The notes beneath the pieces are model-generated. The model did no database searches. It had not been told where the DNA came from and saw only the letters and a program-made list of their open reading frames with translations. 64,000 bases of DNA from Gammaproteobacteria bacterium (GTDB lineage Bacteria > Pseudomonadota > Gammaproteobacteria > Natronospirales > REEB76), in contig DAHUYB010000077.1 in NCBI GenBank assembly GCA_027315405.1, forward strand, positions 24,286-88,285. Reading direction: 5' to 3'. Below are positions 943-48,712 of this stretch, piece after piece; the first letter of the stretch is position 1, and each line of letters begins with the position of its first letter. The translations under genes and the position numbers were made by a program.

Positions 943-1039
943 CTCCATTGAACCGGTATAGACTCTTTCGCTCTTTCGCGCAGCATCGTCAATACGCTGC
1001 CGGGTTGAATTGAATCAATCGAACTGCCGGGGGTCTAGC

Positions 1040-3682: not shown

Positions 3683-3694
3683 CCAGTAATCCTT

Positions 3695-4765
3695 ATGGGG
3701 TTATTGAATCTCTCCTTGCGTAATTTCCGTTGTTTTACTGCCGCCGACCTCGAATTTGCCCCAACGTTTAATTTGATCACCGGGGAAAATGCTTCAGGAA
3801 AAACCAGCCTGATTGAAAGCATTTTCCTTATGGGTCGAGGGCGTTCTTTCAGGACGGCAAACTTGGAATCGGCGGTTCGTGCGGGCACCAACGGATTTCA
3901 GATTGTCGGGCGGGTATCCAGCCAATCCACCCCAATACCTATAGGACTTGCCCGTGAAAATGGTCATCTAGAGGCGAGAATTGCAGGGCAGACGCCGGCG
4001 ACATTGGCGCAGTTATCGGAAACCTTTCCAGTTCAGTTAGTAGATAATCAGGCACATGAAATTATACGAGGCAACCCACATCGGCGCCGGCAGTTTTTGG
4101 ATTGGGGTGTGTTTCACGTGGAACCGACCTTTTTCCCTGTCTGGCGCCGTTATCAGCGGGTTTTGCGCCAGCGCAATACGCTGCTGCGCAACGGCAATCC
4201 CCAACCAGAGATATCGAGTTGGGATAGGGAATTGGTTTCTCAGGGGGAAGCGTTGGGTGCCTTCAGGCAGGAATATCTAGCGAGCTTGCTCCCGACTGCC
4301 ACCGCCTGGGCGAGTCAAGCCTTAGGCGGACTCGAAATTAGTTTGGAGTATCGCCCGGGGTGGCCAAGAGAGCAGGGTTTTCCGGATGCCTTGAAGAATG
4401 CAATCGAACGGGATCGATATGCGGGTATGACGCAGGTCGGACCCCATAGGGCCGAGATGCTGATAAAAGTGGAGGGTAAGCCTGCTCAAGAAAGGGTCTC
4501 CCGGGGACAGGAAAAAGCGTTGGTTGGAGCCTTATTGCTGGCTCAAGCTGCTGTTTACCGGGCGCGTAGTGGGCGGCCCTGCACCTTGTTGCTGGATGAT
4601 TTAGCCGCTGAATTCGATAGCGGACACCTAACCCGATTTCTAGACCGCGTAGAAGAATGCGGCGCCCAGACCCATATTACTGCCATAGATCCCCCTTCTT
4701 CGATCACAAGCCGGGTAGCAAAGGCGTTCCACGTGAAACAAGACAAAATCACCGAAATGGTATAA
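3695..4765 (+). CDS. recF: DNA replication/repair protein RecF
   Basis: 356 aa. Walker A GENASGKTS, SMC-like signature region and C-terminal LLLDDLAAEFD (Walker B). Confidence 0.95.
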   Translation: MGLLNLSLRNFRCFTAADLEFAPTFNLITGENASGKTSLIESIFLMGRGRSFRTANLESAVRAGTNGFQIVGRVSSQSTPIPIGLARENGHLEARIAGQTPATLAQLSETFPVQLVDNQAHEIIRGNPHRRRQFLDWGVFHVEPTFFPVWRRYQRVLRQRNTLLRNGNPQPEISSWDRELVSQGEALGAFRQEYLASLLPTATAWASQALGGLEISLEYRPGWPREQGFPDALKNAIERDRYAGMTQVGPHRAEMLIKVEGKPAQERVSRGQEKALVGALLLAQAAVYRARSGRPCTLLLDDLAAEFDSGHLTRFLDRVEECGAQTHITAIDPPSSITSRVAKAFHVKQDKITEMV

Positions 4766-7958
<3,193 letters not shown>

Positions 7959-7962
<4 letters not shown>

Positions 7963-8504
7963 CGCTGTACCTCAAGGAGTAAATGCTCGACGGCCGTCGC
8001 CAGGTCAGCGAACACTTCCACGCGCCGGGGGGCAGATAATTGCCGCAAGGTTTCTTCTCCATAGCCCGTGCGTACCAGGATCGGACGAGCCTTGACTGCT
8101 TCCGCTGCTTGGATATCGCGCAAACTGTCACCGATAGCGGAGACGCCTTTGAGGCTCAGATTGAACCGTTTCTCGATCTGGTGCAGCAATCCGGGTTTTG
8201 GTTTTCGACAGTCGCAATCATCCCCCGGGCCATGAGGACAGTAAAAAATACCGGCCAGCCTACCCCCGGATGCTTCAACAGCTGCTTGCATCTTACGGTG
8301 AATAGCTTTCAGGGCCTCAAGGTCAAACAGTCCACGTCCAACACCCGCTTGGTTGGTTGCCACCACCACGCTGAAACCGCCCTGATTGAGACGGGCGACG
8401 GCTTCGAGGCTGCCGGGGATGGGAATCCATTCGTCAGGCGACTTGATGTAGGCTTCGGATTCATGATTGATGACGCCGTCGCGGTCGAGGATCACCAGCC
8501 GCAT
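7959..8504 (-). CDS. gmhB: D-glycero-beta-D-manno-heptose-1,7-bisphosphate 7-phosphatase (HAD family)
   Basis: LILDRDGVIN (HAD motif I), VATNQAGVGRG and the zinc-loop CxH...CxCRKPKPG typical of GmhB. Confidence 0.85.
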
Positions 8505-8505
8505 G

Positions 8506-10608
8506 TTATTCGGTCTGAATCAGCGCCAGGTCGGCGGTGTGCAGGAACAACTCGGACAGGTGGGCGAGAAGCGCCAGGCGGTTGGCGCGGATTCCCGCGT
8601 CCGTGTCCATGACCAGCACCCGGTTGAAGAACTCATCCACAGGCGCGCGTAGCGCCGCGAGCTTTTTGAGGGCCGCGGTGTAATCGCCAGCGGCGAGCAG
8701 CGGGTGGATATCCTGCTGTAACCGTTCCACCTGGGCATACAGCGATTTTTCAGCGGGTTCGCGCAACTTGGATATTTCCACTTCATGGGCCTCAAACCGG
8801 CCTGCCTGTTTGAGGATGTTGCCGATGCGTTTGTTGGCGGCCGCAAGGCTCGATGCTTCCGGCAGAGACAGAAAGGCATTTACCGCCTGTATGCGGCGCT
8901 GGAAGTCGAGCGGTCTTTCCGGGCGGCGCGCACGCACCGCCTCGAACACGTCGGCGCGGATGCCGGCTTCCAGGTAATAGGCCCATAGCCTTTCCAGCAG
9001 AAACTCATACAGCTCGTCGGCCAGTACCTCTTGGTTTTGGCCAAACGGCTGGTCGGCCAACGCGGCGCGAAGGAGTTTCATCAAGTCCAGATCAAGTTGC
9101 TGTTCCACCAGAATGCGCATGACTCCCAGGCCCGCGCGCCGCAGGCCGAAAGGATCCTTGTCGCCCGTGGGTTTCTGGCCAATTACAAAGATTCCGCAGA
9201 TGGTGTCCAGCTTGTCGGCGATGGCGAGCGCTTGGCCGGTTTTGGTCGCGGGCAGCGTATCGCCGGCATAACGCGGCCGATAGTGCTCAGCGATGGCGCG
9301 CGCCACCTCCTCCGGCTCGCCGTCGTGGTGCGCGTAATAGCCGCCCATGACACCCTGAAGCTCCGGGAATTCGCCTACCATGCCGGTCACCAGATCACAC
9401 TTGCAAAACAGTGCGGCGCGACTTGCGAGTCCCGGGTCGCCGTTGATCTGTCCGGCGATATACTCAGCCAGTTTTGCCACTCGCCGGGATTTGTCCCTAA
9501 GACTGCCGAGGCCTTTCTGGAAAGTAATGCGCTCCAGTTCCGGCAGGCGCGCTTCGAGCCGTGTTTTGCGGTCGTGTTCCCAGAAGAATGCGGCGTCGCT
9601 GAGCCGCGGCACGATCACGCGCTCGTTGCCGCGCCGCACCTCCGCGGGTTGTTTGCTCTGGATGTTGCTGATGGCGACAAACCGCGGCAACAGCCGGCCT
9701 TTAACATCGCGCAGCGGGAAGTAACGCTGCTGGCTTTCAAGAACTGCGACGATCACCTCGTCGGGCAGTACTAGGAATTTCTTGTCGAACCCGCCGGTCA
9801 CCGGCACCGGCCATTCCACCATTGCTGCCACCTCTTCAAGCAATGCCCCGTCCAGTTGTGCCTGCCCACCCGCCTTCTTTGCCGCCGCAGTCACTTGCAC
9901 AGCGATTCTCTTGGTCAACGTGCCGTGGCGGTCCTCCACCAGCACCTTGCCTGTGGAGGCGAGCACTTTGGGATAGTCCTTTGGGTGTTTGAGAGTAATC
10001 GTGGCTGGGTGATGGTAGCGGTGACCGTAAGTCTTGCTGCCGGCCTGGATGCCGAGGATTTCCGCCTTGAGCGGTTGTTCGCCGAGCAGCATCACGACCC
10101 AATGCACCGGCCGCACAAACTGCACCTCGCCTGATCCCCAGCGCATGCGTTTCGGAATCGGCAGCTTTGCCAATGCTTCGTTCACGATCCCGGGCAGAAG
10201 CTCGGCAGCGGTTTTGCCTTTGAGTTCCCTGATGTAAGCCAGCCGCTCACCTCCGTCGGTTTGACAGCGCTTCAACTGACCAACGGTCACTCCACAGGAT
10301 TTAGCGAAACCTTCGGCGGCTTTGGTTGGCTGACCTTGGCTATCAAATGCGGTACTGACTGCCGGCCCTAAACGTTCTTCGGTACGGTCTTTTTGTTTGA
10401 GAAGAATTCTGGGCAGATAGATCGCCAGCCGCCGTGGTGAAAAAAACGTGTCTCCCTCAGGGGGGTGTTCCGGAAGAAAATTGCGGGTTGCGAGTTGCAT
10501 AAACAGGTTCTGATGGAAGGCTATCGCCAAGCCTTTTAAACTTTTTGGCGGTAATTCCTCAGTGCCGATTTCCACCAGGAACGGTTGCGTGTCTTTCGCC
10601 TTAGCCAT
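8506..10608 (-). CDS. glyS: glycine--tRNA ligase beta subunit
   Basis: [22 protein letters not shown] is the GlyS-type N-terminus. About 700 aa. Immediately downstream of glyQ with an 8-nt overlap. The start was trimmed from the ORF-track start at 10692. Confidence 0.95.
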
Positions 10609-11530
10609 GGGCGTGTTTCTTTCGAGGATTTTCCCTGCGCAGTAATGGGAAATCCAGGGCTTCGCGGCTTTGCAGATAGGCTTCGGCGACACCGCGGGCC
10701 AGGGTGCGCACCCGCAGGATAAAGCGCTGGCGCTCGGTCACGGAGATCGCCCTGCGGGCATCCAGCAGATTGAAGGTATGCGAAGCTTGCAAGGCCTGTT
10801 CATAGGCCGGCAGCGGCAGGTGCTTGTCAAGCAACCGCTGGCATTCGCGCTCACAGGTGTCGAACCAGCCGAACAGGCTCTGGGTATCAGCTTCCTCGAA
10901 GTTGTATTTCGATTGCTCCACTTCGTTCTGGCGGAACACGTCGCCATAGGTGATGCAACCAAGCGGGCCGTCGGTCCACAGCAGATCAAACACGCTCTCC
11001 ACACTTTGCAGGTGCATGGCGATGCGTTCGAGGCCGTAGGTGATTTCCCCAGACACCGGCCGGCATTCAAGGCCGCCAACCTGCTGGAAATAGGTAAACT
11101 GGCTTACTTCCATGCCGTTCAGCCATACTTCCCAGCCAAGCCCCCAAGCGCCCAAAGTCGGCGATTCCCAGTTGTCTTCCACAAAACGGATGTCGTTGAT
11201 CAGCGGGTCCAAGCCCAGAGCCTTTAGAGAACCCAGATACAGTTCCTGAATATTATCCGGGGAGGGTTTGAGTATTACTTGGAACTGATAGTAGTGCTGC
11301 AGCCGGTTGGGGTTTTCGCCATAACGGCCGTCGGTGGGCCGGCGGCAGGGCTGCACGTAGGCGGCCCTCCAGGGCTCCGGGCCGATGGCTCGCAGAAAAG
11401 TAGCGGGGTGGAAGGTGCCCGCGCCCACAGGCATATCCAGGGGCTGCAGCAGTACACAACCCTGACGGAGCCAGTATTGCTGCAAGGCGAGGATAAGATT
11501 CTGGAAGGTCGCGGGGGTTCTGGCGCTCAT
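10601..11530 (-). CDS. glyQ: glycine--tRNA ligase alpha subunit
   Basis: 309 aa. [47 protein letters not shown] is a highly conserved GlyQ sequence. Confidence 0.97.
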
Positions 11531-17229: not shown

Positions 17230-17694
17230 CTAAAAAGTCACGGTGGCCACGATACTATCGTCGTAGCTTCCTGGAGCAATATTCTCCAGTGCCGGAATCT
17301 GGCCATAGACGCTGATACGCACGCGATTGTTGTTGAAATTTTTGCTGACCGTCTGGGTACCGCCGGTGCCGTCACCAAAGATGATCACCCGCGCGGCAGT
17401 GGTATACAGGTTGTAATCCAATTGGTCGCTGGTGGTACCACTGATCATGTAACGGGGGTTGTAGGTGCCGCTTTGGCCGGAACTGAGTGCCGCCGTGAGC
17501 GTGCCCATACCATTGCAGACGATAGTAATGCGCCCCGCGCGGTTCAATGGATTAGTGGAAAACGGGTTATAGTTGCCGAATGCGATTGGCCGAGCCGTGA
17601 TGGTGCAGGTTGCGGCTCTTAGCGTATTTGACAGGAGAAAGGCCATGCCCGCACATAGCAACAACATGATTGTAGGACGATTAAGCCGCTGCAT
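17230..17694 (-). CDS. spore coat protein U (SCPU) domain pilin-like subunit
   Basis: Signal peptide. C-terminal VYGQIPALENIAPGSYDDSIVATVTF is shared with the two paralogues in the operon. Last gene of the chaperone-usher operon. Confidence 0.8.
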   Translation of the reverse strand: MQRLNRPTIMLLLCAGMAFLLSNTLRAATCTITARPIAFGNYNPFSTNPLNRAGRITIVCNGMGTLTAALSSGQSGTYNPRYMISGTTSDQLDYNLYTTAARVIIFGDGTGGTQTVSKNFNNNRVRISVYGQIPALENIAPGSYDDSIVATVTF

Positions 17695-17696
17695 GT

Positions 17697-18152
17697 TTAA
17701 AAACTCACTGTTACTGTGATCGAGTCGCTATAACTACCTGGCATTACATTTTGCTGAGCGGGAATTTGTCCGTAAACATTAAACATCGTGGTGCTCTTAT
17801 TTTTGAACGTCTGGACGATATCACCCGTACTACCGATTCCATTGCCCCATACGGTGGTCAGGCTGGCTGTGGTATAAAGATTATAAGTCAGGGTATTTAT
17901 GCCAGTATTCATGGCGCGCGGAAAATAACTACCGCTGTCACCGGTGCTGAGGTCCACAGTCATAGTACCTTTACCGCGAGCGCACACGACGCTGATGAGA
18001 TTAGTCACAGTCATAATCGTGGGCGCCGCATCCATCGGATCGTAATTGCCGAAATTAAAAGTATTGGTAGCTACGGCGCAGGTCGCCGCATGTGCAATGC
18101 AGGGCGTGAGCGATGCAATACTTACTATGCCCAGAATGCAAAGACCACACAT
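17697..18152 (-). CDS. spore coat protein U (SCPU) domain pilin-like subunit
   Basis: From ATG 18152 the product starts MCGLCILGIVSIASL, a signal peptide. The C-terminus is VYGQIPAQQNVMPGSYSDSITVTVSF. The start abuts the usher stop codon. Confidence 0.75.
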   Translation of the reverse strand: MCGLCILGIVSIASLTPCIAHAATCAVATNTFNFGNYDPMDAAPTIMTVTNLISVVCARGKGTMTVDLSTGDSGSYFPRAMNTGINTLTYNLYTTASLTTVWGNGIGSTGDIVQTFKNKSTTMFNVYGQIPAQQNVMPGSYSDSITVTVSF

Positions 18153-20752
18153 CACAAATTTACTCCTTTGCAGATATATGTACCCAAATCCGGTAGTGGA
18201 TCTTTGGATTCGGGCATGTTCACGCTCAATTCGCAACCCTGATGATCCCAGCTTGCGCGCAGTGAGTTATGCGCCGCAAGCCCGGTGATATATACCTCGC
18301 CATCGAACCCAACGGGGAAGGTCTGCTGCTGTCCTTCAATCCGGACTATGGCGCCGGCCGGCAGCGGCTTGCCGTCTTGCAGGTTGATGGTCAGCGTCGC
18401 GCCGCGGGTGGAGGTGATCGGGAATTTCACAATCACACCGCTGTTAAAACGCGGCACAGCGTTCAGTTGGAGAGTGTTCACTTGGGCGCTGAGCGGCAGA
18501 CTGCCTGCGCCAAGACTGACGGGATTATTCTGGTAAGGCCGCATGATAGGCACCAACGCGTTGCCGTTCCTGTCGGTGGTGCCGATTGGCTGATTGTCCG
18601 CATACACCGTGACATCAGGGATCCCCGGTACCTCGACTAGGCCGAAGGCACCCTGAATCTGGCGGATCGGAAATACACCGCCACCGATGAACGCCAAGCT
18701 GCCCGCAGCTTCACCCTGGTAGGTGGTTTGGCCGTCGGCGCTGAGCGCGCCCACGCGATAGGTGCCGGCATTATTCTGGTAATCATATTCCGCCTGATTC
18801 ATGGCATCCGGACCCGCTTGGATGCCGACGTGGTAGCCACTGCCAGTACCGGCGGGCAGATTCTCCTGTACTGTGGCGAAGGCCTGATCAGTATTGTTTT
18901 GCCGCTGCACACCAACGCTTATATTGCTACGTTCCCCGAAGGGCAGCGTGAACATCAGGATCACGCCGTTATTGCTACCGCCAGTTAGGTTATGGAAGGC
19001 ATTGGCTATGAAAAAACCATTTCTCCCCACGTTCACACTGTAGCTTGCAGTTATCAAACGTGCTTGGCCGAACAGCGGGCTATCCTGATCCAGATAGGCA
19101 AGGGAAACCGAACCGCCCCCGCCCAGGAAGGCGCCGACACTCGCGGTGATCTGTTTATGGGGGGCCGGCTGGCCGTTGTATCCCAGCTCGGTGAAGTCCG
19201 GGCTTGCCAACTCGATATTGGCGCCGGCGTTGAAGACCTGCCATTGCCGCTGGTACCCGATGAGACCCAGCGCGCCGTGCCCTAGATTGCTGTGGCTCAA
19301 GGCTAGGGCGGCATTGAAGACGCCGGTATCAGGCGTGGCGTAGGTGCTGCCGACGCTCACATCCTTAAGATTGGCGGAAGTCTCAGCGCGCAGCTCACCT
19401 GTGAAATCATCTGTAAAGCCATGACGGAAAGTGCCAGTTGCGGCGGATGGGCCGTAGTCGTTGCTGTCTAGGCCATAGTTATCCCGCAACTTGCCGACGG
19501 AAAAAGAATAATCATTCAGTCCCGATTTCAATAAATCTGCGGTGGCGTAGAAGGATGACGAGATGACCTGCTCGCGGCCCAGCATATCTTGCACGACCAC
19601 TGTCGCCGTGCCCGGACCGGTGACCACGGGAACCGCGGGAATCGAGAACGGACCTGGGGGTATTTGCTGTGATTGCTTGAGTACTCCATTCACATACAAC
19701 TGCACCGTCGAGGGCAGTGCCGCCTGGCCGCTGATCACCGGCAGAGGAAAAGTGATGAAGTACGGGCGGGTGGCGAAATTGGTGCCGTACTGGAGGCCGC
19801 CCATGCGCACCGCCAGTCCGGTCATGCCGCCGTCGGTGATGCTGTCGCCGAGCTGCAGCGTGGTCATGCTGTCGGGATCGTCATGCGTCCAGGTAGTATC
19901 CAGGCGCGTCCACTGACTGTGGGCATGGTTGATGTTCTGGCCGATGAAACTGCTGGTGCCCACACCCCAGTCGTTGAATAGACCGGCTTCGAGTAAGCCA
20001 TTAATCGCCGTGAGTCCGGGGCTATGGCTGCCCAGGAAATCGTAGTTCAGAAAACCACCCCAGGGGGTATGTTGCGCCCGCGGATTTTGCCGGAAAAGTC
20101 CATCCACGATGGTGCCACTGAATTCCGCGGCCAGTGCCGTAATCCACAAGGTTTCGGTGGACGAGTCCACACGATAACTGAGGCCCGGAATTGCATCCAA
20201 GGAATAATATTTCTCACCCTGATACAGGTAGGGTTTGACTGCAGGAGGGTGCAAGCGCCAGCGCTCCAGATCGGAACCTTTGGCGTACAAGTGCTCGTCA
20301 GGGGTTGTGCCAAAACCCAGAAACATATTGGTTTCATGCCAAGGCTGCTGGTTGATGTGCACTTCCAGCAGCAGCTCGACGGGTGCGAGCGCAGTTGTCG
20401 GTAATTGTTTGGTGGACGGTGGTGTTGCGGTCCTGTGCCCAGCACTGGACACAGTTGTGGTAGTGGCTGAGGCTGTCTGCAGTGGCGCTATGCTGACAGT
20501 CGCTTGATCGCCACCCGCCTCGAATCTTTGATGCGGTGCGGAAATTGCCTTGTGCTCAAGCCGGGATCTTGAAGACGCCTTAGAACTGACGACCGCTGCC
20601 AGGGTTTTAGCCGCAGTAGTAAATGTCGGTTTCACCGTGGTTGTTATCAGAGCACGCGAGTGGCACCGGCTGAGTAGCAACAGAATAAGCAGTGCGAGTG
20701 CTGCCGATCCGGTCGCCAGCCAGCGCCCCCGGATTTTGAACGGGCTGTTCAC
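18152..20752 (-). CDS. fimbrial outer-membrane usher (PapC/CsuD-like)
   Basis: 866 aa, beta-barrel-type composition, positioned after a PapD-like chaperone. About 120 aa of Thr/Ser/Ala-rich N-terminal sequence precedes the LLLEVHINQQ usher N-domain. Confidence 0.85.
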   Translation of the reverse strand: MNSPFKIRGRWLATGSAALALLILLLLSRCHSRALITTTVKPTFTTAAKTLAAVVSSKASSRSRLEHKAISAPHQRFEAGGDQATVSIAPLQTASATTTTVSSAGHRTATPPSTKQLPTTALAPVELLLEVHINQQPWHETNMFLGFGTTPDEHLYAKGSDLERWRLHPPAVKPYLYQGEKYYSLDAIPGLSYRVDSSTETLWITALAAEFSGTIVDGLFRQNPRAQHTPWGGFLNYDFLGSHSPGLTAINGLLEAGLFNDWGVGTSSFIGQNINHAHSQWTRLDTTWTHDDPDSMTTLQLGDSITDGGMTGLAVRMGGLQYGTNFATRPYFITFPLPVISGQAALPSTVQLYVNGVLKQSQQIPPGPFSIPAVPVVTGPGTATVVVQDMLGREQVISSSFYATADLLKSGLNDYSFSVGKLRDNYGLDSNDYGPSAATGTFRHGFTDDFTGELRAETSANLKDVSVGSTYATPDTGVFNAALALSHSNLGHGALGLIGYQRQWQVFNAGANIELASPDFTELGYNGQPAPHKQITASVGAFLGGGGSVSLAYLDQDSPLFGQARLITASYSVNVGRNGFFIANAFHNLTGGSNNGVILMFTLPFGERSNISVGVQRQNNTDQAFATVQENLPAGTGSGYHVGIQAGPDAMNQAEYDYQNNAGTYRVGALSADGQTTYQGEAAGSLAFIGGGVFPIRQIQGAFGLVEVPGIPDVTVYADNQPIGTTDRNGNALVPIMRPYQNNPVSLGAGSLPLSAQVNTLQLNAVPRFNSGVIVKFPITSTRGATLTINLQDGKPLPAGAIVRIEGQQQTFPVGFDGEVYITGLAAHNSLRASWDHQGCELSVNMPESKDPLPDLGTYICKGVNL

Positions 20753-20843
20753 GGCTTAGCCCGTAGCGGCCAGAAAGCGGCCTTTGGATTGTGTGTGTTG
20801 ACAGCTTGCCGTGAATATCAAGCCCGCTATCGGCACCGCAGTG

Positions 20844-21569
20844 TTATTTTCCCGTGACCAGTTGCGCATGGAGCCTGCCCCGGTCGGTATCGGCGGTGAT
20901 TTCAAGCGGTGCGTTGACTGTCAGTGGTGATGCTAATTTCACGACCCAGGTGTGGCCTGAACCGGGCAATACATAGTTACTGGATTTCTGCGCTAATGGC
21001 CGTTTCTCATCAGAGGCTGTGAGTGTCCACTTCAGGATTTGTGCGTGTGCTGTGCCTGTATTGACTGCGCTGACTTGCAGTTCAGTGGAGCTGAGCCGTT
21101 TGGCTGACCATTTCAGTACGGGCTTGGTATGCGTCGCCGGCTCTACGAATATCGGAATCCCCACGCGCAATGCAATCTGTACGCCGCGGAACGTCGGTGT
21201 AGGTGCCGGCGGCACCTCGCTAAGAAACAGACGATAGCAGGTTTCCATTTTGGCATCCGGTTGGGTGCGCAATCCGACCCGCACTATCTGCTGACTGCCG
21301 GCAGTCACGGTGAAAATCGGCGGCGTGGCCAGGAGCTTGCGGCTAGGCGTATAGATGTCCTGGCCGTGGTCCTGGGACCACGCCACGATCTGCAGCTGCA
21401 CCACTGTCGGTGTCTCACTGCTGTTAGTCACTCTCAATACATCGGTGGAATGATCGGCGGAGAGCGTCAGACGTACGGGATTTACCTGGAAGGAAGCTGC
21501 TTCCGCCCACAGGGGCGGAAGCAGCATTAAGACCAGTATTAGAATCCGACGCATGACAACACTCTGCAC
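20844..21569 (-). CDS. periplasmic pilus chaperone (PapD/CsuC-like)
   Basis: 241 aa. Signal peptide (LMLLPPLWAEA) followed by FQVNPVRLTLSADHSTDVLRVTNSSETP, a PapD-like fold pattern. Confidence 0.85.
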   Translation of the reverse strand: MQSVVMRRILILVLMLLPPLWAEAASFQVNPVRLTLSADHSTDVLRVTNSSETPTVVQLQIVAWSQDHGQDIYTPSRKLLATPPIFTVTAGSQQIVRVGLRTQPDAKMETCYRLFLSEVPPAPTPTFRGVQIALRVGIPIFVEPATHTKPVLKWSAKRLSSTELQVSAVNTGTAHAQILKWTLTASDEKRPLAQKSSNYVLPGSGHTWVVKLASPLTVNAPLEITADTDRGRLHAQLVTGK

Positions 21570-21587
21570 GTGACACGATGCCTGTTA

Positions 21588-22112
21588 TCAGAAGTTTACT
21601 GTAACCGTGATGGTGTCAGCATAGCTGCCGGTCGGGACATTCTGTCCAGCAGGAAGCTGGCCGTAAACCGTATAGGTTTGCTGGTTGCCTACACCTGGGC
21701 CCGCGCCTGTGCCGCTGTCGCAGTTGTTACCGGCGCCACAACTGCTGTTCCAGACCAGCGTGTAACCGCTGTCGGTGTACAGGTTGTAGTTGAGGGTATC
21801 AGTACCGGCATCCTGCATGATCCGGTTGGCTGCGGTACCGCCATGAATGCCGTAATTAAGGGCGATAGTGTACGGCGTGTTCTTGGTGCAATTGACGTTG
21901 ATAGTGCTGGTACCGGTGATAGCGGCTCCGGCATTGACGTCGTAGTTGCCAAACCCCAGGGTACCTGCGGAATTGATCACGCAAGACGTTACCACTGTGG
22001 CGGTAACCTGGAAGGTGCTGGTCGTGGTGCCCGCCTGGGCCGGCACGCTGGCGATGGCTAGGGGCAGGATGGCGGCGCCGGTGATGGCGAGGGTGCGTAT
22101 AAGCTTCAACAT
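21588..22112 (-). CDS. spore coat protein U (SCPU) domain major pilin candidate (CsuA/B-like)
   Basis: First gene of the operon. Signal peptide with AQA cleavage site. The C-terminus is VYGQLPAGQNVPTGSYADTITVTVNF. Confidence 0.8.
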   Translation of the reverse strand: MLKLIRTLAITGAAILPLAIASVPAQAGTTTSTFQVTATVVTSCVINSAGTLGFGNYDVNAGAAITGTSTINVNCTKNTPYTIALNYGIHGGTAANRIMQDAGTDTLNYNLYTDSGYTLVWNSSCGAGNNCDSGTGAGPGVGNQQTYTVYGQLPAGQNVPTGSYADTITVTVNF

Positions 22113-41646: not shown

Positions 41647-42129
41647 ATGAAACTACGTGATCACAAGCTGGCACGGCTGATTCTCGAGCTTCTGAGTCAG
41701 GGCATCACGCCCCACAAGATTGCGCTCACCGTCGCCTTGGGTGTGGTACTGGGTGTGGCCCCGGTGCTCGGCAGCACCACGCTACTGTGCACCGCCGCCG
41801 CCCTGGTGTTCGGCATCAACCTGCCGCTGATTCAGGTGGTGAACTACCTGGTTTACCCCCTGCAACTGCTATTGTTGATTCCCTTCATCCAGGGTGGGCA
41901 ATGGCTGTTTCGCCAGCCGCCTTTGCCGTTCTCGTTTGCGCAACTCACCGCGCTGCTGCGATTGAGATTCTGGCAGACACTGGCGATGCTCTGGGAATAC
42001 ACCCTGCACGGGTTGATTGCATGGCTGATCCTGGGCGGGATGTCTGCATTCATCATCTATACGGTGTTGCGCCCAATCCTCGGGTATCTGATCGTGAGAA
42101 AAACCGCCAGCGAGAAGCATCTTGATTAA
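41647..42129 (+). CDS. DUF2062 domain membrane protein
   Basis: 160 aa. GITPHKIALTVALGVVLGVAPVLGSTTLLCTAAALVFGINLPLIQVVNYLVYP fits DUF2062. Confidence 0.72.
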   Translation: MKLRDHKLARLILELLSQGITPHKIALTVALGVVLGVAPVLGSTTLLCTAAALVFGINLPLIQVVNYLVYPLQLLLLIPFIQGGQWLFRQPPLPFSFAQLTALLRLRFWQTLAMLWEYTLHGLIAWLILGGMSAFIIYTVLRPILGYLIVRKTASEKHLD

Positions 42130-42240
42130 TTAGCGGGTAGTAAATGTGTTTCCAGGTTGTATTCCGAAGCTGCCTGCCACACCGGCCTTGAGTTCCAGAA
42201 CGTATTTTGCCGGGGCGGCGCTGGCACAGGTGGCTACTCT
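42130..42240 (-). pseudogene. orphan 3'-terminal remnant of a DUF192 gene
   Basis: The minus-strand translation ...CASAAPAKYVLELKAGVAGSFGIQPGNTFTTR(stop) parallels the C-terminus of the intact DUF192 gene at 46740..47192 (...YSSAAPAKYVLELHPGVAEKLGIRPGVILTIEP). No N-terminal part is present. Confidence 0.65.
42190..42224. repeat. left copy of the 35-nt direct repeat flanking the microcin islet
   Basis: GAGTTCCAGAACGTATTTTGCCGGGGCGGCGCTGG. Identical at 34/35 positions to 46803..46837. Confidence 0.9.
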
Positions 42241-42261
42241 GGGATGAGCGCAGAGATATAC

Positions 42262-42292
42262 TTGACAAAATCGCGCGGGGGGGGGGTAGGGT
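42262..42292 (+). promoter_or_regulatory. sigma70-like promoter candidate with a G10 homopolymer in the spacer
   Basis: Perfect -35 TTGACA (42262..42267), a 19-nt spacer containing G10 (42277..42286), and a weak -10 TAGGGT (42287..42292). Confidence 0.3.
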
Positions 42293-42306
42293 TGTCGCCG
42301 ATGAGC

Positions 42307-42336
42307 AGGACATACATTTTTACTGCTCACCATAAT
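42307..42336 (+). promoter_or_regulatory. sigma70-like promoter candidate proximal to the microcin gene
   Basis: AGGACA (42307..42312), 18-nt spacer, CATAAT (42331..42336). Lies about 28 nt upstream of ATG 42364. Confidence 0.35.
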
Positions 42337-42363
42337 TGCAAAATTACTCGAAAGGAGACAAAC

Positions 42364-42564
42364 ATGCGAAACCTTACCGCGAACGAATTCTCATTTGTAA
42401 GTGGTGGAGCACCAGCAGGTGAGTCCGAATTGGACACTGTCGCACAAGGTCTGGCCATTGGCGCTTTGGCAAACGCACTTGTTGGAGATGAACCAGGAGC
42501 GTTAACCTTAGCCGCGGCGGCGGGCGGAATAAAAATTGGCGAGTATATTTACTCGCTCTTTTAA
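42364..42564 (+). CDS. double-glycine-leader bacteriocin (class II microcin-like) precursor, 66 aa
   Basis: SD AAGGAG lies 8 nt upstream. The product is MRNLTANEFSFVSGG / APAGESELDTVAQGLAIGALANALVGDEPGALTLAAAAGGIKIGEYIYSLF. The leader is nearly superimposable on the colicin V leader MRTLTLNELDSVSGG. It is encoded next to a C39-ABC exporter. It is nested in the 135-aa track ORF 42157..42564. Confidence 0.75.
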   Translation: MRNLTANEFSFVSGGAPAGESELDTVAQGLAIGALANALVGDEPGALTLAAAAGGIKIGEYIYSLF

Positions 42565-42581
42565 AAACGAGATGATCTTTT

Positions 42582-42615
42582 GGTCCTTGTCAATTTGACA
42601 GGGACCTTTCGTTTT
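42582..42615 (+). terminator. intrinsic terminator/attenuator after the microcin gene
   Basis: 10-bp stem (GGTCCTTGTC 42582..42591 pairs with GACAGGGACC 42597..42606, one G-U pair), 5-nt loop, then UUUCGUUUU. Confidence 0.6.
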
Positions 42616-42651
42616 CACGTGAATTTCGATCTAAAAATTTCTGTACCAGCT

Positions 42652-43188
42652 ATGGTAAAAATCCACAAAATACGGCCTCTTGCAATCACCATTTGGCTAA
42701 TTGGGGTTGTAACACTCGGTTTAGGTCTTTATGTTTGGGGTATTAAATCAAATCCACTATTTTTCATGGAGATGTTGATATTTGGCTTAATTTGTATATG
42801 GATGACATTGTACAGCTACCTATGGGGGCATCAGAGAGGTCACCCGACACGATTTATTGCCATCGTGGTGTTTTCAAGTTTTTGTGTCTGCTTTTATCTG
42901 CGCTCGATCGGCATACTTGGCGGTCACTTATATTTTGTTATCCCGCTGTTATTTGTTGTGATTCTTATCTTGGTGCAATCTAAAACGAAACGACAATTTG
43001 CAGAAGACTATAAATCAGGCATTAAGCGAAATCATTTTAATGATACTAAAGAACGATTCGAGGTAACCAAAAAGACTACAGCCAGTTATCCCCACTATTT
43101 GCAAATAATTTTGCCCAAGCGATATTTGGACAACTATGATTCATTAAAAGCTTGGCTTAGATCGATTAAGGAACATATGCAAAAATAG
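42652..43188 (+). CDS. putative immunity protein (4-TM membrane protein, no recognised family)
   Basis: 179 aa from ATG 42652. Four hydrophobic helices then a Lys-rich cytoplasmic tail. AT-rich codon usage unlike the rest of the window. Sits in the immunity-gene position between the precursor and exporter genes. There is no clear SD. Confidence 0.5.
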   Translation: MVKIHKIRPLAITIWLIGVVTLGLGLYVWGIKSNPLFFMEMLIFGLICIWMTLYSYLWGHQRGHPTRFIAIVVFSSFCVCFYLRSIGILGGHLYFVIPLLFVVILILVQSKTKRQFAEDYKSGIKRNHFNDTKERFEVTKKTTASYPHYLQIILPKRYLDNYDSLKAWLRSIKEHMQK

Positions 43189-43354
43189 ATATAAAGCAGG
43201 AATTCCTATCATGGGAGACTGTAAATTGAACTGTGTAGCTGCTTCATGAGAGCTTACCACTGGCAGTCATGAGGAGTGAAGCGGATGATCCTCAAGTCGG
43301 AGACCTTGGACGAAGTGCTGAAAGATAGGCGTGCACCGCCCTGCGGGTATTTCC

Positions 43355-44598
43355 ATGCCTTCACTGTTCAGACCTGAAGTTTTCAAGCACAAAACAACCT
43401 TACGCTTCGGCGCCGTTATGGTGCCAACCCCTCTTCCTCTATGGTTTATGAGCACCTTTACGCTGATCTTGCTCGCCTCAATTGCCGCTTACTTCTGGGG
43501 GGGCATTACACGCGCAAGGTAACGGTGGAAGGCTATCTGCTACCTACGAAGGGACTGGTGCGCTTGTATGCGCCCGAGCTAGGCATTGTGAGCGAACGCA
43601 AGGTCGCGCAGGGTGGGCGCGTCCACAAAGATGACACGCTTCTGGTCATCGCGATTCCGCGCAGCTCAACTAGTGCGGCGAACGTAAATCAGGCGCTGGC
43701 GCAGGCCGTCGAGCAGACTGAGGCGGCGATCCACGCGCAGATGACCGAGGCCGTTGAGCTTGAGCAAAGCCAGGAAGCGTCGTTCCAGGCCAACCTCGTC
43801 AATTTGCGCACGAATTTGAGTGAAGAGCGTGCCCAGCTCAACACGCAGAAGAAATTGCTGGCGATCCTTGCGACGCGACAGAAGAAGTACGCCACATTTG
43901 AAGGCTCGGGATTGATCTCGGAATTGGACATCAGGAATGCGGAACAAGCGTGGCTGGAGCAGGTCGCGAAAGTCCAAGCACTGGAGCAATCCATTACACA
44001 GGCCACGGGTCAAATTCAGAGCACTCAGTTCCAGTTGGCGCAAGCCAATATCAACCTGCAAAACCAACTTGCCCAGTATCAACAATCGTTGAGCACGGCC
44101 GAACAGCAACTCACTCAATATCAGGCTGGGGACAACTTCGTACTCAAGGCGCCGGTGGACGGTACGGTGTCCGCCATGCTAGTGCAGCCGGGGCAGACGG
44201 TGTCTCCGCAAACCCCGCTGGTCATCTTGATGCCCACGGGGTCACAACTCGAAGCGCGTTTGTTGATCCCCGCGGGCGCCATGGGTTTCGTAAAAGTTGG
44301 CCAGAAAGTCAGGCTGCGTTACGACGCGTTTCCCTACCAGAACTTTGGCACTTATCAGGGACGCGTCACGCAGGTTTCCAATGCCGTTTTCACACCATCT
44401 GAACTACCGGGGCCGCTCGCCATCAACGCAGCCGTGTATCCCGTAGAAGTGGCGCTCGATTCACAGGATGTCATGGCCTACGGGCATCCGGTGGCGCTCC
44501 AGCCGGGCCTGTCACTGAGCGCGGATGTGCTCTTGGCTCGCGAACGCATTATTCAATGGCTATTTGAGCCACTTTACAGTTTGAAGGGCAAACTCTAG
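43355..44598 (+). pseudogene. cvaA: CvaA/HlyD-family membrane fusion protein, reading frame split at a G7 tract
   Basis: The N-terminal part (43355..43522, MPSLFRPEVFKHKTTLRFG...TM helix...AAYFWGG) and the main part (track ORF 43441..44598, ...GGHYTRKVTVEGYLLP...) are in different frames. One extra G in the run 43497..43503 joins them into a ~414-aa CvaA-like protein. Confidence 0.85.
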
Positions 44599-44619
44599 AA
44601 GTTCCCGGAGGACGTAGGA

Positions 44620-46731
44620 GTGACGCTGCGGTTCTCGCGCCGGCAGTTAACGGTAATGCTGCAAACCGAAGCCGCGGAATGCGGCCTTGCCTGCTTGGCC
44701 ATGGTTTTCAGTTTTCATGGCCACCGCATGGATGTGGGTGAGCTGCGGCGCCGATACAGTTTTTCTCTCAAGGGCGCGACACTCGCGCATCTCATTACCA
44801 TTGCCAACGGCTTGGGGTTCATCACGCGCCCCTTGCGGCTGGAACTTGAGGATTTACCAAAGCTTACCTGCCCCGCGATTCTGCACTGGGACTTGAATCA
44901 TTTCGTGGTGCTGAAGGCCGCACGCGGGCGCCACGTGGTGATTCACGATCCGGCTCGCGGGAGCCGCAGCCTCAATCTTGACGAGGTTTCCAAGCATTTT
45001 ACAGGCGTGGCGCTGGAGCTTGCTCCCGGCCACGGTTTTCAAACTAAAGCCGCTCCCGAAATACCAGCCATCTGGTCACTCCTTGGCGGTTGGCGGGGTA
45101 TGCTGGGCGCTCTTACCCAGATTCTGGTGTTTTCGCTGGCGCTGGAAGCCTTCGCGATTCTCAGCCCGTTCTTTACGCAGCTTGTCGTGGACCAGGTGCT
45201 GGTGAACCGCGACATGAACCTGTTGACGGTGCTCGGCATCGGTTTTGGTCTGCTGGCCATCATCAACGTGGTGGTCACGGCTTTGCGGGGTTGGATGGTG
45301 GCCTATCTCGGCAGTCACCTGCAATTTCACTCCGCGGCCGCGCTCATGCGGCATTTGGTGGGGTTGCCGTTGGACTTCTTCGCCAAAAGGCATATCGGCG
45401 ACGTGGTCTCGCGCTTTAATTCCATGAGCACCATTCAGCAGACCATGACTTCTGGGCTCATCGAGGCGCTGGTGGACGGCGTCATGGTGATATTCACCGT
45501 TGCCGTCATGTTGTTCTATAGCGTGCCGCTCACGCTGTTGATAGTCGCATTGATCGTGGGCTACGCAATCATCCGGTTTCTCGCCTACCGTCCGCTGCAC
45601 ACTGCCACCGAAGAGCAGATCATCCAGCTCGCCAAGCAGCAGTCCAATTTCCTGGAAACCGTGCGCGGCATGCAGAGTGTGAAAGTAGCCGGTTCCGAAG
45701 GAGAACGCCACACTCAGTATCAGAACCGGCTGGCGGACAACGTGAATGCTTCATTTATCGTCAGCAAGCTCGGTATCTGGTTCAAGGCCACAAACGGACT
45801 GTTGTTCGGTCTTGGGACCATCGCGGTGATCTGGTGGGGCGCAAGCGAAGTCATGGCCGGTATGTTGTCCATCGGCATGTTGATCGCATTCATTTCCTAC
45901 GCCAGCCAGAGCACCGGCAAGGCCGGGGCACTGATAGACAAAGCCATTGCCTTCCGCATGCTGCGGCTGCATGCGGAGCGGGTGGGCGATATTGTGTTTG
46001 CCGAGCCGGAGGCAGTTTCGTCTTTACCGCGGCTGGGACAGGTGCCCATCCGCGGCAGGATCGAAGTGGAGAATTTGTGCTACCGCTACGGTGATCTGGA
46101 AGCGCCGGTTCTGAGAAACGTGAGCTTTTACATCGAGCCAGGCGAGTCGGTAGGCATCGTTGGTCCGTCGGGCTGCGGCAAAACCACGTTGGTCAAGCTC
46201 CTGCTTGGCCTCATGCGGCCTACGGAAGGGACGATTAAGGTGGATGGTCTCGATATCCAGACCCTGGGCCTTTCTGAGTACCGTCGGCACGTGGGCGCGG
46301 TGATGCAAGAGGATCAGCTCTTTGCCGGTACTTTGTCGGACAATATCGCGTTTTTCGATCCGCAGGCGGATCAGTCATGGATTGAAACCTGTGCGAAACT
46401 CGCGGCTATCCACGGCGATATTCTGACCATGCCCATGGCCTACAACACGTTGATTGGCGACATGGGCACGGTTCTCTCCGGCGGCCAGAAGCAGAGAGTA
46501 CTGCTGGCGCGGGCACTTTATCGCCGACCGCGAATATTGCTGCTGGACGAGGCTACCAGCCACCTGGATGTACCCACGGAAAAACTGGTGAGCGACGCCG
46601 TGCGGCGACTGAAAATTACCCGCATTATTGTTGCTCATCGCTCCGAGACCATACGCTTAGTTGATCGGGTGCTTGGAATAATGCCGAATAAACCAGGTGT
46701 TACCGAACTGCGCAGAGTGAAAAATGTTTGA
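44620..46731 (+). CDS. cvaB: bacteriocin/microcin ABC exporter with N-terminal C39 peptidase domain (CvaB-like)
   Basis: 703 aa. QTEAAECGLACLAMV (catalytic Cys), HWDLNHFVVL, six TM segments, Walker A GPSGCGKTT, LSGGQKQR, LLLDEATSHLD. Collinear with CvaB as I recall it. Confidence 0.93.
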   Translation: MTLRFSRRQLTVMLQTEAAECGLACLAMVFSFHGHRMDVGELRRRYSFSLKGATLAHLITIANGLGFITRPLRLELEDLPKLTCPAILHWDLNHFVVLKAARGRHVVIHDPARGSRSLNLDEVSKHFTGVALELAPGHGFQTKAAPEIPAIWSLLGGWRGMLGALTQILVFSLALEAFAILSPFFTQLVVDQVLVNRDMNLLTVLGIGFGLLAIINVVVTALRGWMVAYLGSHLQFHSAAALMRHLVGLPLDFFAKRHIGDVVSRFNSMSTIQQTMTSGLIEALVDGVMVIFTVAVMLFYSVPLTLLIVALIVGYAIIRFLAYRPLHTATEEQIIQLAKQQSNFLETVRGMQSVKVAGSEGERHTQYQNRLADNVNASFIVSKLGIWFKATNGLLFGLGTIAVIWWGASEVMAGMLSIGMLIAFISYASQSTGKAGALIDKAIAFRMLRLHAERVGDIVFAEPEAVSSLPRLGQVPIRGRIEVENLCYRYGDLEAPVLRNVSFYIEPGESVGIVGPSGCGKTTLVKLLLGLMRPTEGTIKVDGLDIQTLGLSEYRRHVGAVMQEDQLFAGTLSDNIAFFDPQADQSWIETCAKLAAIHGDILTMPMAYNTLIGDMGTVLSGGQKQRVLLARALYRRPRILLLDEATSHLDVPTEKLVSDAVRRLKITRIIVAHRSETIRLVDRVLGIMPNKPGVTELRRVKNV

Positions 46732-46739
46732 CTGCTGCG

Positions 46740-47192
46740 TCATGGTTCAATGGTCAAAATAACGCCGGGACGGATTCCAAGCTTTTCCGCTACGCCCGGA
46801 TGGAGTTCCAGCACGTATTTTGCCGGGGCGGCGCTGGAATAAGAAGGGCAGGGATTCATCTTGCAAGGTGGCGTATCCGCCGACACGTTGATGAGCCGGC
46901 GCTGTGCATCGAAGAACAGAATATCCAATGGAATGAGTGTATGCTTCATCCAGAAATAACGCAGCTGCGCGTTGGAGTAGACAAACAGCATGCCGTGGCC
47001 GGCTGCCAAGTGCGTACGGTACATCAGACCGCGTTCACGGGCGGCGTCGGTGGCCGCAATTTCCACGCTGAAACTGTGACCTGCGAGTACCACGTGGGAT
47101 CCCGTAGGGGGCGCCGCAAACACGGCCGAGGTGACAATGAACAAGGCAAACAGAAGATTTCGACTTAAAATAAGAGGACGGCGCATCAGCAT
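46740..47192 (-). CDS. DUF192 domain-containing secreted protein
   Basis: 150 aa. Signal peptide, ...GLMYRTHLAAGHGMLFVY...WMKHTLIPLDILFFD...AAPAKYVLEL pattern of DUF192/COG1430. Confidence 0.8.
   Translation of the reverse strand: MLMRRPLILSRNLLFALFIVTSAVFAAPPTGSHVVLAGHSFSVEIAATDAARERGLMYRTHLAAGHGMLFVYSNAQLRYFWMKHTLIPLDILFFDAQRRLINVSADTPPCKMNPCPSYSSAAPAKYVLELHPGVAEKLGIRPGVILTIEP
46803..46837. repeat. right copy of the 35-nt direct repeat flanking the microcin islet
   Basis: GAGTTCCAGCACGTATTTTGCCGGGGCGGCGCTGG, inside the 3' end of the intact DUF192 gene. Confidence 0.9.
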
Positions 47193-47206: not shown

Positions 47207-48712
47207 TTAGTTGATTGGCATTCCCGGCGGCTGCTTGGTGAAGTCTTGCGGTGAAGGATTCTGGGTCAGGCGGTACACGCCCTCTCGTAGGATGCGGCGC
47301 ATGACGATATCCACGATGGTGGTCTGGTTGGGCTTGATGAAATTCCTGAGATTAACCGCCGTCGCCTTAAGGGTCGCCGGCTGATAGAGCACGAAGCCAT
47401 CCTGGGGGTAGGGCACCACGCGCAGGCCGAGGCCGTCGCAGGGCGGCAGCGCTGGCCGCAATTGCCGGCCTTTGTACATCACCGCCGGGCCGCCCAGCAT
47501 GCGGGTGTAATTGAGGTAGTAGGTGATGGTGCCGGGATCCAGGTGATTGCGCTGGCGGTCGATGAAAAATCCCGGCGGCAGGTGGTTGGGGCTATTGTCT
47601 TTGCCGGCGGTGAGAACGATATCGAAATCCTTGATGGCATTGCCTTGGTCGTCGCGCACCCGAAAAATGAGCATGCAGCAGGGATCCACGATTACCTGAT
47701 GATCGAAGGGACCAAGGCTGCCGCGGTCCTCCACTTGTTCTTGTTGTTGGACCTCCGCCGTTTGCGCGCGGAAGCTGTCGAAGAGTTCAGCGTAATCCTT
47801 GAGGGTGGTGACCCGCAGGCATTGTAGAATGCCCGTTACAGTGGCGTTGGGGGTGGCATCGGCGGGAATGCTGCGCATGATGCCCATGCGCAGGTCCGAA
47901 TGACAGACGCCGGGGATTACCGCCAACGGCACCGCCGCTGAAATTTCCGGTGCCCCGGCCTGCAGCAACGGGGCGCTGAAACCCAGCTTCGACTTTTTGT
48001 CCGCCGTTGGTGGTTGCTGTTTCAGGCGCACATAGGTGTAATTCAAGTTGGCAGCCGCCACCCGGACCACGCCATCGGAGCCGTTTTCCGCGGTGTAGCT
48101 GTTCACAAAATCGTAAAGTTGAGGATCGTGGGATTCGCCGCTGAGCACGAAGGGAAACAAGCCCTGCGAGCCGATATAGTCCGCGCCCTGTTGCAGCCAT
48201 TCGAGATTGAGTTTGAGACTCTGGGGACTGCCCAGTTCCAGCCATTCCAGTACGCCGGTACCCACGTCCACGCCCTCGAACCAGGCCTTGAGGCGCGAGA
48301 GCTTGGACAGCCCCAGTTGTACCAAAGCCGAACCGAAGTTCGCGGGCGCCAGCATGATGAGATGGCTCAGGGGCGAATGCTTGCGGCCAGCGTTGATATA
48401 GAAATGCTGCAGCCAGGCACGGATCACCGGGCAGCCGGTGGAATGGGCGATGCAGGCGATACGTTGCCCATTTTTGATGGCCTCGCCCAGCTCCCGTTCC
48501 AAGGCCGTCTGGAAGGCGCGGGCAATATCCGGAATGGTGACTTCGTTGTGGAAACTGATGTATTCCGACAGCCAGAGATTGCGTACCTCGATGTCCAAAT
48601 CGGGCGAACGCTTGGCTTCCAGTTTGAGGCGCTGCGGCAGACCGCCGTAAGTATCGGTATTGCGCACGCTCCAGCCGTGTACCAGCACCACCAGGCGCTT
48701 TTGCTTAGCCAT
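47207..48712 (-). CDS. alpha/beta-hydrolase lipase, PlaB-like phospholipase A candidate
   Basis: 501 aa. VVLVHGWSV, the uncommon nucleophile motif AHSTG (PlaB has THSTG), LIMLAPANFGSAL, GSDGVVRVAAANLNY. A ~250-aa C-terminal domain of unknown fold follows. Confidence 0.6.
   Translation of the reverse strand: MAKQKRLVVLVHGWSVRNTDTYGGLPQRLKLEAKRSPDLDIEVRNLWLSEYISFHNEVTIPDIARAFQTALERELGEAIKNGQRIACIAHSTGCPVIRAWLQHFYINAGRKHSPLSHLIMLAPANFGSALVQLGLSKLSRLKAWFEGVDVGTGVLEWLELGSPQSLKLNLEWLQQGADYIGSQGLFPFVLSGESHDPQLYDFVNSYTAENGSDGVVRVAAANLNYTYVRLKQQPPTADKKSKLGFSAPLLQAGAPEISAAVPLAVIPGVCHSDLRMGIMRSIPADATPNATVTGILQCLRVTTLKDYAELFDSFRAQTAEVQQQEQVEDRGSLGPFDHQVIVDPCCMLIFRVRDDQGNAIKDFDIVLTAGKDNSPNHLPPGFFIDRQRNHLDPGTITYYLNYTRMLGGPAVMYKGRQLRPALPPCDGLGLRVVPYPQDGFVLYQPATLKATAVNLRNFIKPNQTTIVDIVMRRILREGVYRLTQNPSPQDFTKQPPGMPIN

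Follow-up and report, generated by a model that had tools for sequence, protein, structure and literature searches.

What does the region at positions 42262-46731 of this gammaproteobacterial DNA produce, and can the genome that carries it still export the product? We examined the region within the whole stretch analyzed, 64,000 nucleotides of contig DAHUYB010000077.1 (assembly GCA_027315405.1), hereafter called the window. An initial annotation had described the region as a locus for producing and exporting a colicin V-type (class II) microcin, a sequence-based description that holds on every testable point. The region is likely to be a bacteriocin module of the class IIa microcin type, carried by an uncultured gammaproteobacterium on a chromosomal insert of 4.6 kb that varies between strains; by homology to colicin V, we infer its antibacterial activity, leader cleavage, export, and immunity. 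Four genes, all on the + strand and in the places annotated, lie between a DUF2062 gene (41647-42129, +) and a DUF192 gene (46740-47192, -):

42364-42564, + strand: precursor peptide gene, 66 amino acids (aa), with a 15-aa leader (MRNLTANEFSFVSGG) and a predicted 51-aa core (APAGESELDTVAQGLAIGALANALVGDEPGALTLAAAAGGIKIGEYIYSLF).
42652-43188, + strand: candidate immunity gene, 178 aa, with four predicted membrane helices and a polar C-terminal tail of ~68 aa, 37-40% GC.
43355-44598, + strand: CvaA/HlyD-type adaptor gene, disrupted by a probable 1-nucleotide (nt) deletion in a G7 run (43497-43503).
44620-46731, + strand: peptidase-containing ABC exporter (PCAT), 703 aa, with a C39 domain, a six-helix transmembrane domain, and a nucleotide-binding domain.

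The locus had been called a complete module, which is right for its gene content and wrong for its intactness, the cvaA-like gene being frameshifted (as the initial annotation itself implied). The insert contains these four genes only, with no TolC-like gene, regulator, or modification enzyme, as had been noted. GC content is 37-45% in the peptide and membrane-protein pair versus ~57%, the host level, in the export genes.

The exporter aligns with CvaB, the colicin V exporter, from end to end (38% identity over 691 aligned residues; E, 7e-174; 502 bits by BLASTP), as the initial annotation had anticipated. Its Peptidase_C39, ABC_membrane, and ABC_tran domains all score over Pfam cutoffs. The C39 residues are Gln15, Cys21 (the peptidase cysteine annotated earlier, within QTEAAECGLACL), His94, and Asp110, and Walker A, the signature motif, and Walker B are found at residues 515, 619, and 640, respectively. 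According to mutagenesis of CvaB, Gln26, Cys32, Leu76, Gly77, Trp101, Asp102, His105, Val108, Asp121, and Pro122 matter for colicin V processing/secretion (PMC3335142). All ten are kept, as Gln15, Cys21, Leu65, Gly66, Trp90, Asp91, His94, Val97, Asp110, and Pro111 of the exporter. Scores and leader length argue against NHLP/Nif11-type export (TIGR03796/TIGR03794): the exporter reaches 502 bits versus a cutoff of 853, the adaptor 59.8 versus a cutoff of 156, and the leader is only 15 aa long. HlyB-type RTX secretion, in which the C39-like domain lacks the catalytic Cys and the substrate signal is C-terminal, is likewise disfavored by the presence of Cys21, a TIGR01846 score of 444 bits versus a cutoff of 725, and a substrate leader that is N-terminal and predicted to be cleaved.

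The peptide gene has AGGAG placed 6 nt ahead of its ATG, in agreement with the strong Shine-Dalgarno sequence annotated earlier, and the double-glycine leader reported there matches the expected pattern, with hydrophobic residues at -4, -7, -12, and -15, Glu at -8, and Gly-Gly at -2/-1. Screening of 2,441 small open reading frames (ORFs) of 30-150 aa (any start codon, both strands, 64 kb) identified this peptide as the sole match in the window to a strict leader regular expression. It was also the sole match to Rx[IL]x9G[GAS], our rendering of the published class II microcin signal Motif 1 (PMC12219008). The locus has the features of class II microcins, namely, a small precursor (mature form under ~10 kDa) with an N-terminal double-glycine leader in the 15-19-aa range, a PCAT, and a CvaA/HlyD-type gene adjacent to the exporter. 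The predicted mature core (51 aa; 4931.5 Da; pI 4.05) is acidic, Cys-free, and 39% Ala+Gly. Its C terminus (...GEYIYSLF) is not Ser-rich and the insert has no gene beyond the four, which argues against the siderophore-linked class IIb, whose markers, given in part in one source (PMC12219008), include a Ser-rich C terminus and glycosyltransferase/esterase genes of the mchA and mceIJ types. A word-index search of 5.8 billion proteins returned one relative of the peptide (94-95% identical). A HMMER scan of 1.84 billion representative proteins returned one homologue (P0002) and three long Ala/Gly-repeat proteins, the latter being, in our view, compositional matches; neither search found the peptide among described sequences. 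No NCBIfam model matched it, even at E values up to 10. Comparison with the counterpart in metagenome contig L002 gave a dN/dS of 0.185, indicating purifying selection on the peptide gene.

The gene directly 3' of the peptide gene had been annotated as an AT-rich, 179-aa protein with four transmembrane segments; its base composition and four helices stand, and its length is best read as 178 aa. A longer, TTG-started ORF (42580) is disfavored, as it starts inside the terminator hairpin described below and an indel relative to L002 lies just 5' of the ATG. No Pfam or NCBIfam family gives the protein a meaningful score, and it has no homology to known immunity proteins. It does show the features used as published working criteria for immunity candidates, being adjacent, of <=216 aa, and equipped with transmembrane helices. 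The word-index search of 5.8 billion proteins found one relative (79% identical), always beside the same peptide; the pair co-occurs in contigs L002 and L095. The dN/dS versus L002 is 0.18, again indicating purifying selection. This membrane protein is likely to be the immunity protein. A further element separates the two genes:

42582-42606, + strand: stem-loop, terminator/attenuator candidate, with an 11-bp stem and a T-rich tail, between the peptide and immunity genes.

The hairpin has a folding energy of -23.3 kcal/mol (z, -4.8) and is conserved in L002 (z, -3.2) with one compensatory change, T:A to A:T. Because a strong, conserved hairpin with a T-rich tail lies between the pair, partial termination after the structural gene is suggested. 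As a separate observation, the membrane-protein gene has a dS versus L002 of 0.61, four times that of the adjacent peptide gene (0.15), with small counts (42364-43188 versus L002 185-1008); this contrast could reflect a recombination mosaic or mRNA constraint.

Taken together with the colicin V model, these parts suggest a mechanism. The 66-aa precursor would be held via its double-glycine leader by the C39 domain of the exporter and cut after Gly15, and the 51-aa core (4.93 kDa) would leave the cell by a path made up of the exporter, the CvaA-like adaptor, and an outer-membrane channel of the TolC type encoded at an unlinked site. Protection of the producer would fall to the neighboring inner-membrane protein with its four helices. 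The core, probably folded into two helices that carry GxxxG/AxxxA motifs, would act on the envelope of related bacteria.

Whether the window genome can complete this pathway depends on the adaptor gene. Its product matches Pfam HlyD_3 (E, 1.4e-19) and, below cutoff, TIGR01843 (E, 8e-37), and is collinear with CvaA along its length (22% identity; E, 1e-23), in line with the membrane fusion protein annotated earlier. The frame from the ATG at 43355 ends at a stop at 43522, and the remainder of the protein lies in another frame; one G added to G7 yields a 414-aa adaptor, collinear with intact relatives of 413-414 aa (L084, L085, and L100). At the site of the run, the relatives read TGGTGGGG, i.e., TGG TGG GGN CAT (Trp-Trp-Gly-His), and the window reads TGG GGG GG CAT. 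A T-to-G change apparently gave TGGGGGGGG, after which one G was lost. Because the run is absent in relatives, it appears to be a recent mutational product and not a conserved contingency tract. The frameshift is probably real, because an independent assembly of SRR13766252 (100% identical over 8.2 kb) has the same G7, a C8 run elsewhere in the window is read in frame inside an intact pyrD (dihydroorotate dehydrogenase) gene, and the relatives differ. The frameshift divides the N-terminal membrane anchor from the periplasmic domains, and the set of export genes is therefore not wholly intact. With the adaptor out of frame past its membrane anchor, export by this genome has probably been lost, and the genome is probably that of an immune nonproducer. 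We also considered programmed -1 frameshifting on G GGG GGC and rejected it, since this sequence is not among the slippery sites known to be efficient and relatives lack the run.

The same evidence bears on a second reading, in which the genome is that of a fully functional producer and G7 is a homopolymer miscall, a minority allele in the consensus of the metagenome-assembled genome (MAG), or a reversible slipped-strand state, with the adaptor produced by some or all of the population. The break is indeed a single base in a homopolymer, the reading frame beyond it remains open for 364 codons, another G tract of variable length lies 5' of the peptide gene (G10; G8 in L002), and the insert looks recent, its flanks being 99.7-99.9% identical to empty-site contigs. 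We nevertheless consider a functional producer unlikely. The G run was made by a T-to-G change in a site that lacks it in relatives, which is not what is expected of an evolved contingency tract; two assemblies agree on G7; C8 in pyrD is in frame; and a pattern search of JGI metagenomes for other run lengths in the adaptor gene found none.

The G tract and a promoter candidate lie upstream of the peptide gene:

42262-42292, + strand: G-tract element, 5' of the peptide gene, consisting of TTGACA, 9 nt, G10 (42277-42286), and TAGGGT.
42307-42336, + strand: sigma-70-like promoter candidate, AGGACA-18-CATAAT, with 9/12 consensus matches.

The L002 counterpart of the G-tract element (86-111) has TTGACA, 6 nt, G8, and TAGTGT, making the homopolymer length-polymorphic. 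The 64-kb window contains three G/C runs of >=7, two of which are inside the 4.6-kb insert. A role of the G tract as a promoter-spacer phase switch was rejected; the two spacings, 19 nt in the window and 14 nt in L002, are both unsuited to a sigma-70 promoter. Sites like the promoter candidate are not more numerous than expected from shuffled sequence; its CATAAT is kept in L002.

The range given in the initial annotation (42262-46731) covers the genes and falls short of the whole element. The inserted DNA measures 4,613 bp and spans 42225-46837 (equivalently, 42190-46802), in the 3' coding end of the DUF192 gene. Its boundaries are marked as follows:

42190-42224, no strand assigned: 35-bp direct repeat, left copy, island boundary.
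46803-46837, no strand assigned: 35-bp direct repeat, right copy, island boundary, differing from the left copy at one base.
42130-42224, - strand: stranded old 3' end of DUF192, beside DUF2062, encoding ...APAKYVLELKAGVAGSFGIQPGNTFTTR*.
46740-46802, - strand: island-borne 3' end of DUF192, 63 bp, encoding ...HPGVAEKLGIRPGVILTIEP*, which keeps the gene open.

In three empty-site contigs (L088, L089, and L090), DUF192 directly abuts DUF2062, a single 35-bp segment aligns to both repeat copies of the window, the flanks are 99.7-99.9% identical to the window on both sides, and the esterase is identical to the window's. The stranded DUF192 end matches the 3' end of these empty sites save for one base in the 35-bp repeat. 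The new DUF192 C terminus is unlike the empty-site version and resembles the island-linked version in L085, a more distant relative (83-87% nucleotide identity) that has the locus at the same site without a stranded remnant. Contig L092, which shares 99.9% identity with the window, likewise has the insert's exporter end next to DUF192. No integrase, transposase, or other mobility gene was found in the insert. This arrangement fits a recent import into an empty site via one crossover of a circular intermediate in the conserved 35-bp stretch, and the reverse event would be a deletion between the 35-bp repeats. A dif/Xer-type site at the repeat was rejected, since by eye it looks unlike E. coli dif.

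A more ambitious reading combines several of these features: the core would use a receptor or target new to microcins, the G10 and G7/G8 tracts would form a slipped-strand switch between producer and immune-only states, and the locus would move as a recombinase-free circle at the 35-bp segment. We regard this combination as improbable. If true, it would imply a core receptor or target not yet seen for microcins, in environmental gammaproteobacteria.

The frameshifted adaptor, the lack of mobility or regulatory genes, and the near-orphan status of both small proteins could also mean that the whole insert, peptide and membrane protein included, is a decaying remnant without current function. This is very unlikely, given that the ORFs for the peptide, the membrane protein, and the exporter are unbroken and keep every catalytic motif, that dN/dS is ~0.18 for both small genes, and that a ribosome-binding site, a promoter-like site, and the conserved hairpin are retained.

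The initial annotation had tied its reading to conservation of the small ORF beside homologous exporters in other genomes, and such conservation was found. The exporter family is very common: species-representative genomes gave at least 595 matches and metagenome contigs at least 584, most of them 47-57% identical. In two independent sets, each of 80 exporter loci (160 in total), we counted small, co-oriented ORFs whose leader fits the strict double-glycine pattern. The second set came from a metagenome scan giving 47-57% identity relatives only and was used as an enrichment replicate. Such ORFs were enriched beside the exporter pair 18-fold in the first set (41/4551 versus 16/31303; p, 1e-24; 25/80 loci) and 16-fold in the second (47/3276 versus 17/18339; p, 2e-25; 23/80 loci).

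Closer relatives show that the cassette in front of the exporter is exchangeable. Exporters 79-81% identical to that of the window (L083, L084, and L085) stand behind different leader-peptide/membrane-protein cassettes, with L083 and L085 at the same DUF192 site. The peptides of all three have an MRELxxxExxxVSG[GAS]-type leader and an Ala/Gly-rich hydrophobic core and are followed by unrelated small membrane proteins of 138, 161, or 96 aa; the L085 cassette also holds a CPBP/Rce1-like protein. The window pair recurs in L002 and L095 at 85% nucleotide identity, with homology confined to 42279-43194 of the window, and in L095 three further membrane-protein genes (131 aa, 96 aa, and CPBP) stand between it and an adaptor gene.

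Several further observations concern these relatives. Between cassette and adaptor, 96-aa and 252-aa CPBP/Rce1-like genes occur in both L085 (1883-2938) and L095 (1078-2525), with the 131-aa gene in L095 only; such stacked extra membrane-protein genes are probably additional or orphan immunity genes. L083 has, besides its upstream peptide, a second leader peptide (MRELNANEIEQVSGS..., 61 aa) 3' of the exporter (4962-5147). In L097 (3482-4744), an exporter 88% identical to the window's adjoins an Nramp gene and not DUF192, so that the exporter pair occupies different chromosomal sites in close relatives. L100 (4073-5305) has an ATP-grasp gene (MvdD-like; weak Pfam match) after an exporter 86% identical to that of the window, a hint that the same exporter lineage may serve a modified peptide of the graspetide type. 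Two recurrent families of non-hydrophobic double-glycine peptides also lie beside exporter homologues, one reading YLDWET.WCGTRVPGWPRP...ALNPQPLPP and the other MKELsLEEVLRIAGG followed by VP..AALDE.TYRAP. Their contigs (L003, L013, and L023; and L010, L018, L040, L054, L068, L119, L121, L122, L151, and L155) include Burkholderiales and Usitatibacter MAGs and unclassified metagenome contigs, among others.

In another reading, the exported peptide is not an antibacterial toxin. It could be a signal, a biofilm-matrix component, or another extracellular peptide, in the manner of RaxX, pheromones of the ComC/BlpC type, or self-assembling microcins. PCATs are described as exporting functionally diverse peptides in excerpts of two sources (PMC7018657 and PMC10986499), and part of a third reports that Acinetobacter microcins promote biofilm (PMC13188072). 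Source annotations of exporter homologues include RaxB beside CvaB and MchF, and many leader peptides beside homologous exporters are non-hydrophobic. We nonetheless think a non-antibacterial role has little chance of being correct. Signaling is argued against by the conserved exporter with exchangeable cassettes, by presence/absence among close strains, and by the lack of a kinase, regulator, or modifying enzyme: neither the insert nor the DNA directly beside it holds a histidine kinase, response regulator, or sulfotransferase, as would be expected of ComC/BlpC or RaxX/RaxST types, and the insert has no other modification gene. A dedicated small membrane protein accompanies the peptide in every case, and sister loci pair such peptides with a CPBP/Rce1-like protein. 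The CPBP/Rce1 family includes bacteriocin immunity proteins, and variable peptide-immunity cassettes with strain-level presence/absence are typical of bacteriocin loci (blp type).

Several results weigh against reading the locus as a microcin module with a broken adaptor. PCATs also export non-toxic peptides, the insert has no regulator, and the best Fur box match (11/19) is within shuffle expectation. The Pfam MccV model (PF17508) scores the peptide at 20.1 bits (E, 9.4e-4), under its 27-bit gathering threshold and over profile positions 1-51/104 only, and even this score derives from the leader and a Gly/Ala-rich stretch; three of four sister-locus peptides tested likewise score 17-22 bits. 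The core has no similarity to any characterized microcin core, as the initial annotation had already remarked. AlphaFold models of the peptide and membrane protein are of low confidence (pLDDT, 55-57). Exporter and adaptor fall under every NCBIfam equivalog cutoff, and no TolC-type gene was found among the larger window ORFs tested. The G7 count comes from assemblies that possibly share the same reads, leaving room for homopolymer error or a mixed population.

Outside the insert, the window starts with dnaA, dnaN, recF, and gyrB, then glyS and glyQ on the other strand (1010-11530). Because of the dnaA-dnaN-recF-gyrB order, the window lies near the chromosomal replication origin. Rfam and tRNA scans of the whole window found nothing. 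A chaperone-usher pilus cluster (17230-22112, -) comprises three subunits with SCPU (spore coat protein U) domains, a PapD-like chaperone, and an usher. Beside DUF192 lies a gene for a conserved 501-aa protein (47207-48712, -) with no Pfam or NCBIfam match; a member of its 90% cluster is named 'esterase/lipase family protein' in one source.

The type of system is thus well described, and the new part is the peptide core and the immunity candidate, both near-orphans. With this locus, the repertoire of class II microcins gains a core sequence and an immunity candidate, neither related to those already in it. It also provides a natural example of how such modules behave in wild populations, with sites that are occupied in some strains and empty in others at >99.7% flank identity, peptide-immunity cassettes that can be swapped before a conserved exporter, and an exporter-defective, probably immune-only allele. 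Pipelines that mine genomes for microcins, and studies of the ecology of producers and cheaters, can make use of these features; the known mechanism is unchanged.

For comparison with known systems, our reference was colicin V (microcin V), encoded by cvi-cvaC and cvaB-cvaA on an E. coli IncF plasmid. The two systems have the same four functional parts. Their 15-residue leaders are identical at 11/16 positions, counting the residue after the cut; the exporters align at 38% identity end to end, with the Cys/His/Asp triad and seven neighboring functional residues kept; the adaptors are collinear at 22% identity; and the outer-membrane partner is unlinked in both, TolC being unlinked to the colicin V genes in E. 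coli. The cores differ: that of the window has 51 aa, is acidic, and lacks Cys, whereas that of colicin V has 88 aa (a 103-aa precursor less the leader) and a C-terminal disulfide, and no similarity is detectable between them. The immunity candidate has 178 aa and four helices versus the 78-aa Cvi, with no family match linking them. The window genes are co-oriented with the peptide first, unlike the two divergent operons of colicin V, and they lie on a chromosomal insert with a frameshifted adaptor instead of an IncF plasmid. By sequence, the system appears to work like colicin V, but its peptide falls outside the MccV sequence family.

The initial annotation had framed the locus as novel on the grounds that characterized microcins are almost all enterobacterial, a view that is now dated. 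Class II microcins are documented well outside Enterobacteriaceae, with reports of their abundance and great sequence diversity (PMC12219008; PMC9746304), and orphan cores are the norm for the class. One has been validated in Acinetobacter (PMC10333792), and candidates have been predicted in Xanthomonas (bioRxiv 10.64898/2026.01.19.700402). Related peptides are described in an excerpt on Moraxella (PMC2761928), and bacteroidetocins, from Bacteroidales, are cited as related peptides in part of a class II microcin paper. Like the class II microcins recovered by signal-sequence screens (cinful; PMC12219008; PMC9746304), the window peptide has Motif 1, is <150 aa long, adjoins a PCAT and a membrane fusion protein, and is adjacent to a small transmembrane immunity candidate. 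It shares with Acinetobacter Mcc17978 (PMC10333792) a non-enterobacterial gammaproteobacterial source and differs in coming from an uncultured environmental lineage and from a locus in which no Fur box was found.

Among more distant systems, the pneumococcal blp locus likewise combines a conserved PCAT with strain-variable bacteriocin/immunity cassettes, and natural transporter frameshifts there give immune nonproducers, e.g., the blpA-mutant 'cheater' pneumococci (PMC3171984). In contrast to the window locus, blp belongs to a Gram-positive organism, lacks both adaptor and TolC, and is controlled by a pheromone together with a two-component system, neither of which is present here; homology is confined to the PCAT and the leader type. 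PCAT1, which is also of Gram-positive origin, works without an adaptor or outer-membrane channel. This Clostridium thermocellum protein (PDB 4RY2) is the closest full-length solved PCAT, aligning with residues 4-685 at 331.6 bits (phmmer; E, 1e-97), ahead of HlyB (293) and ComA (273) among solved structures; it is more distant than CvaB, whose 502 bits come from a different scoring method (BLASTP).

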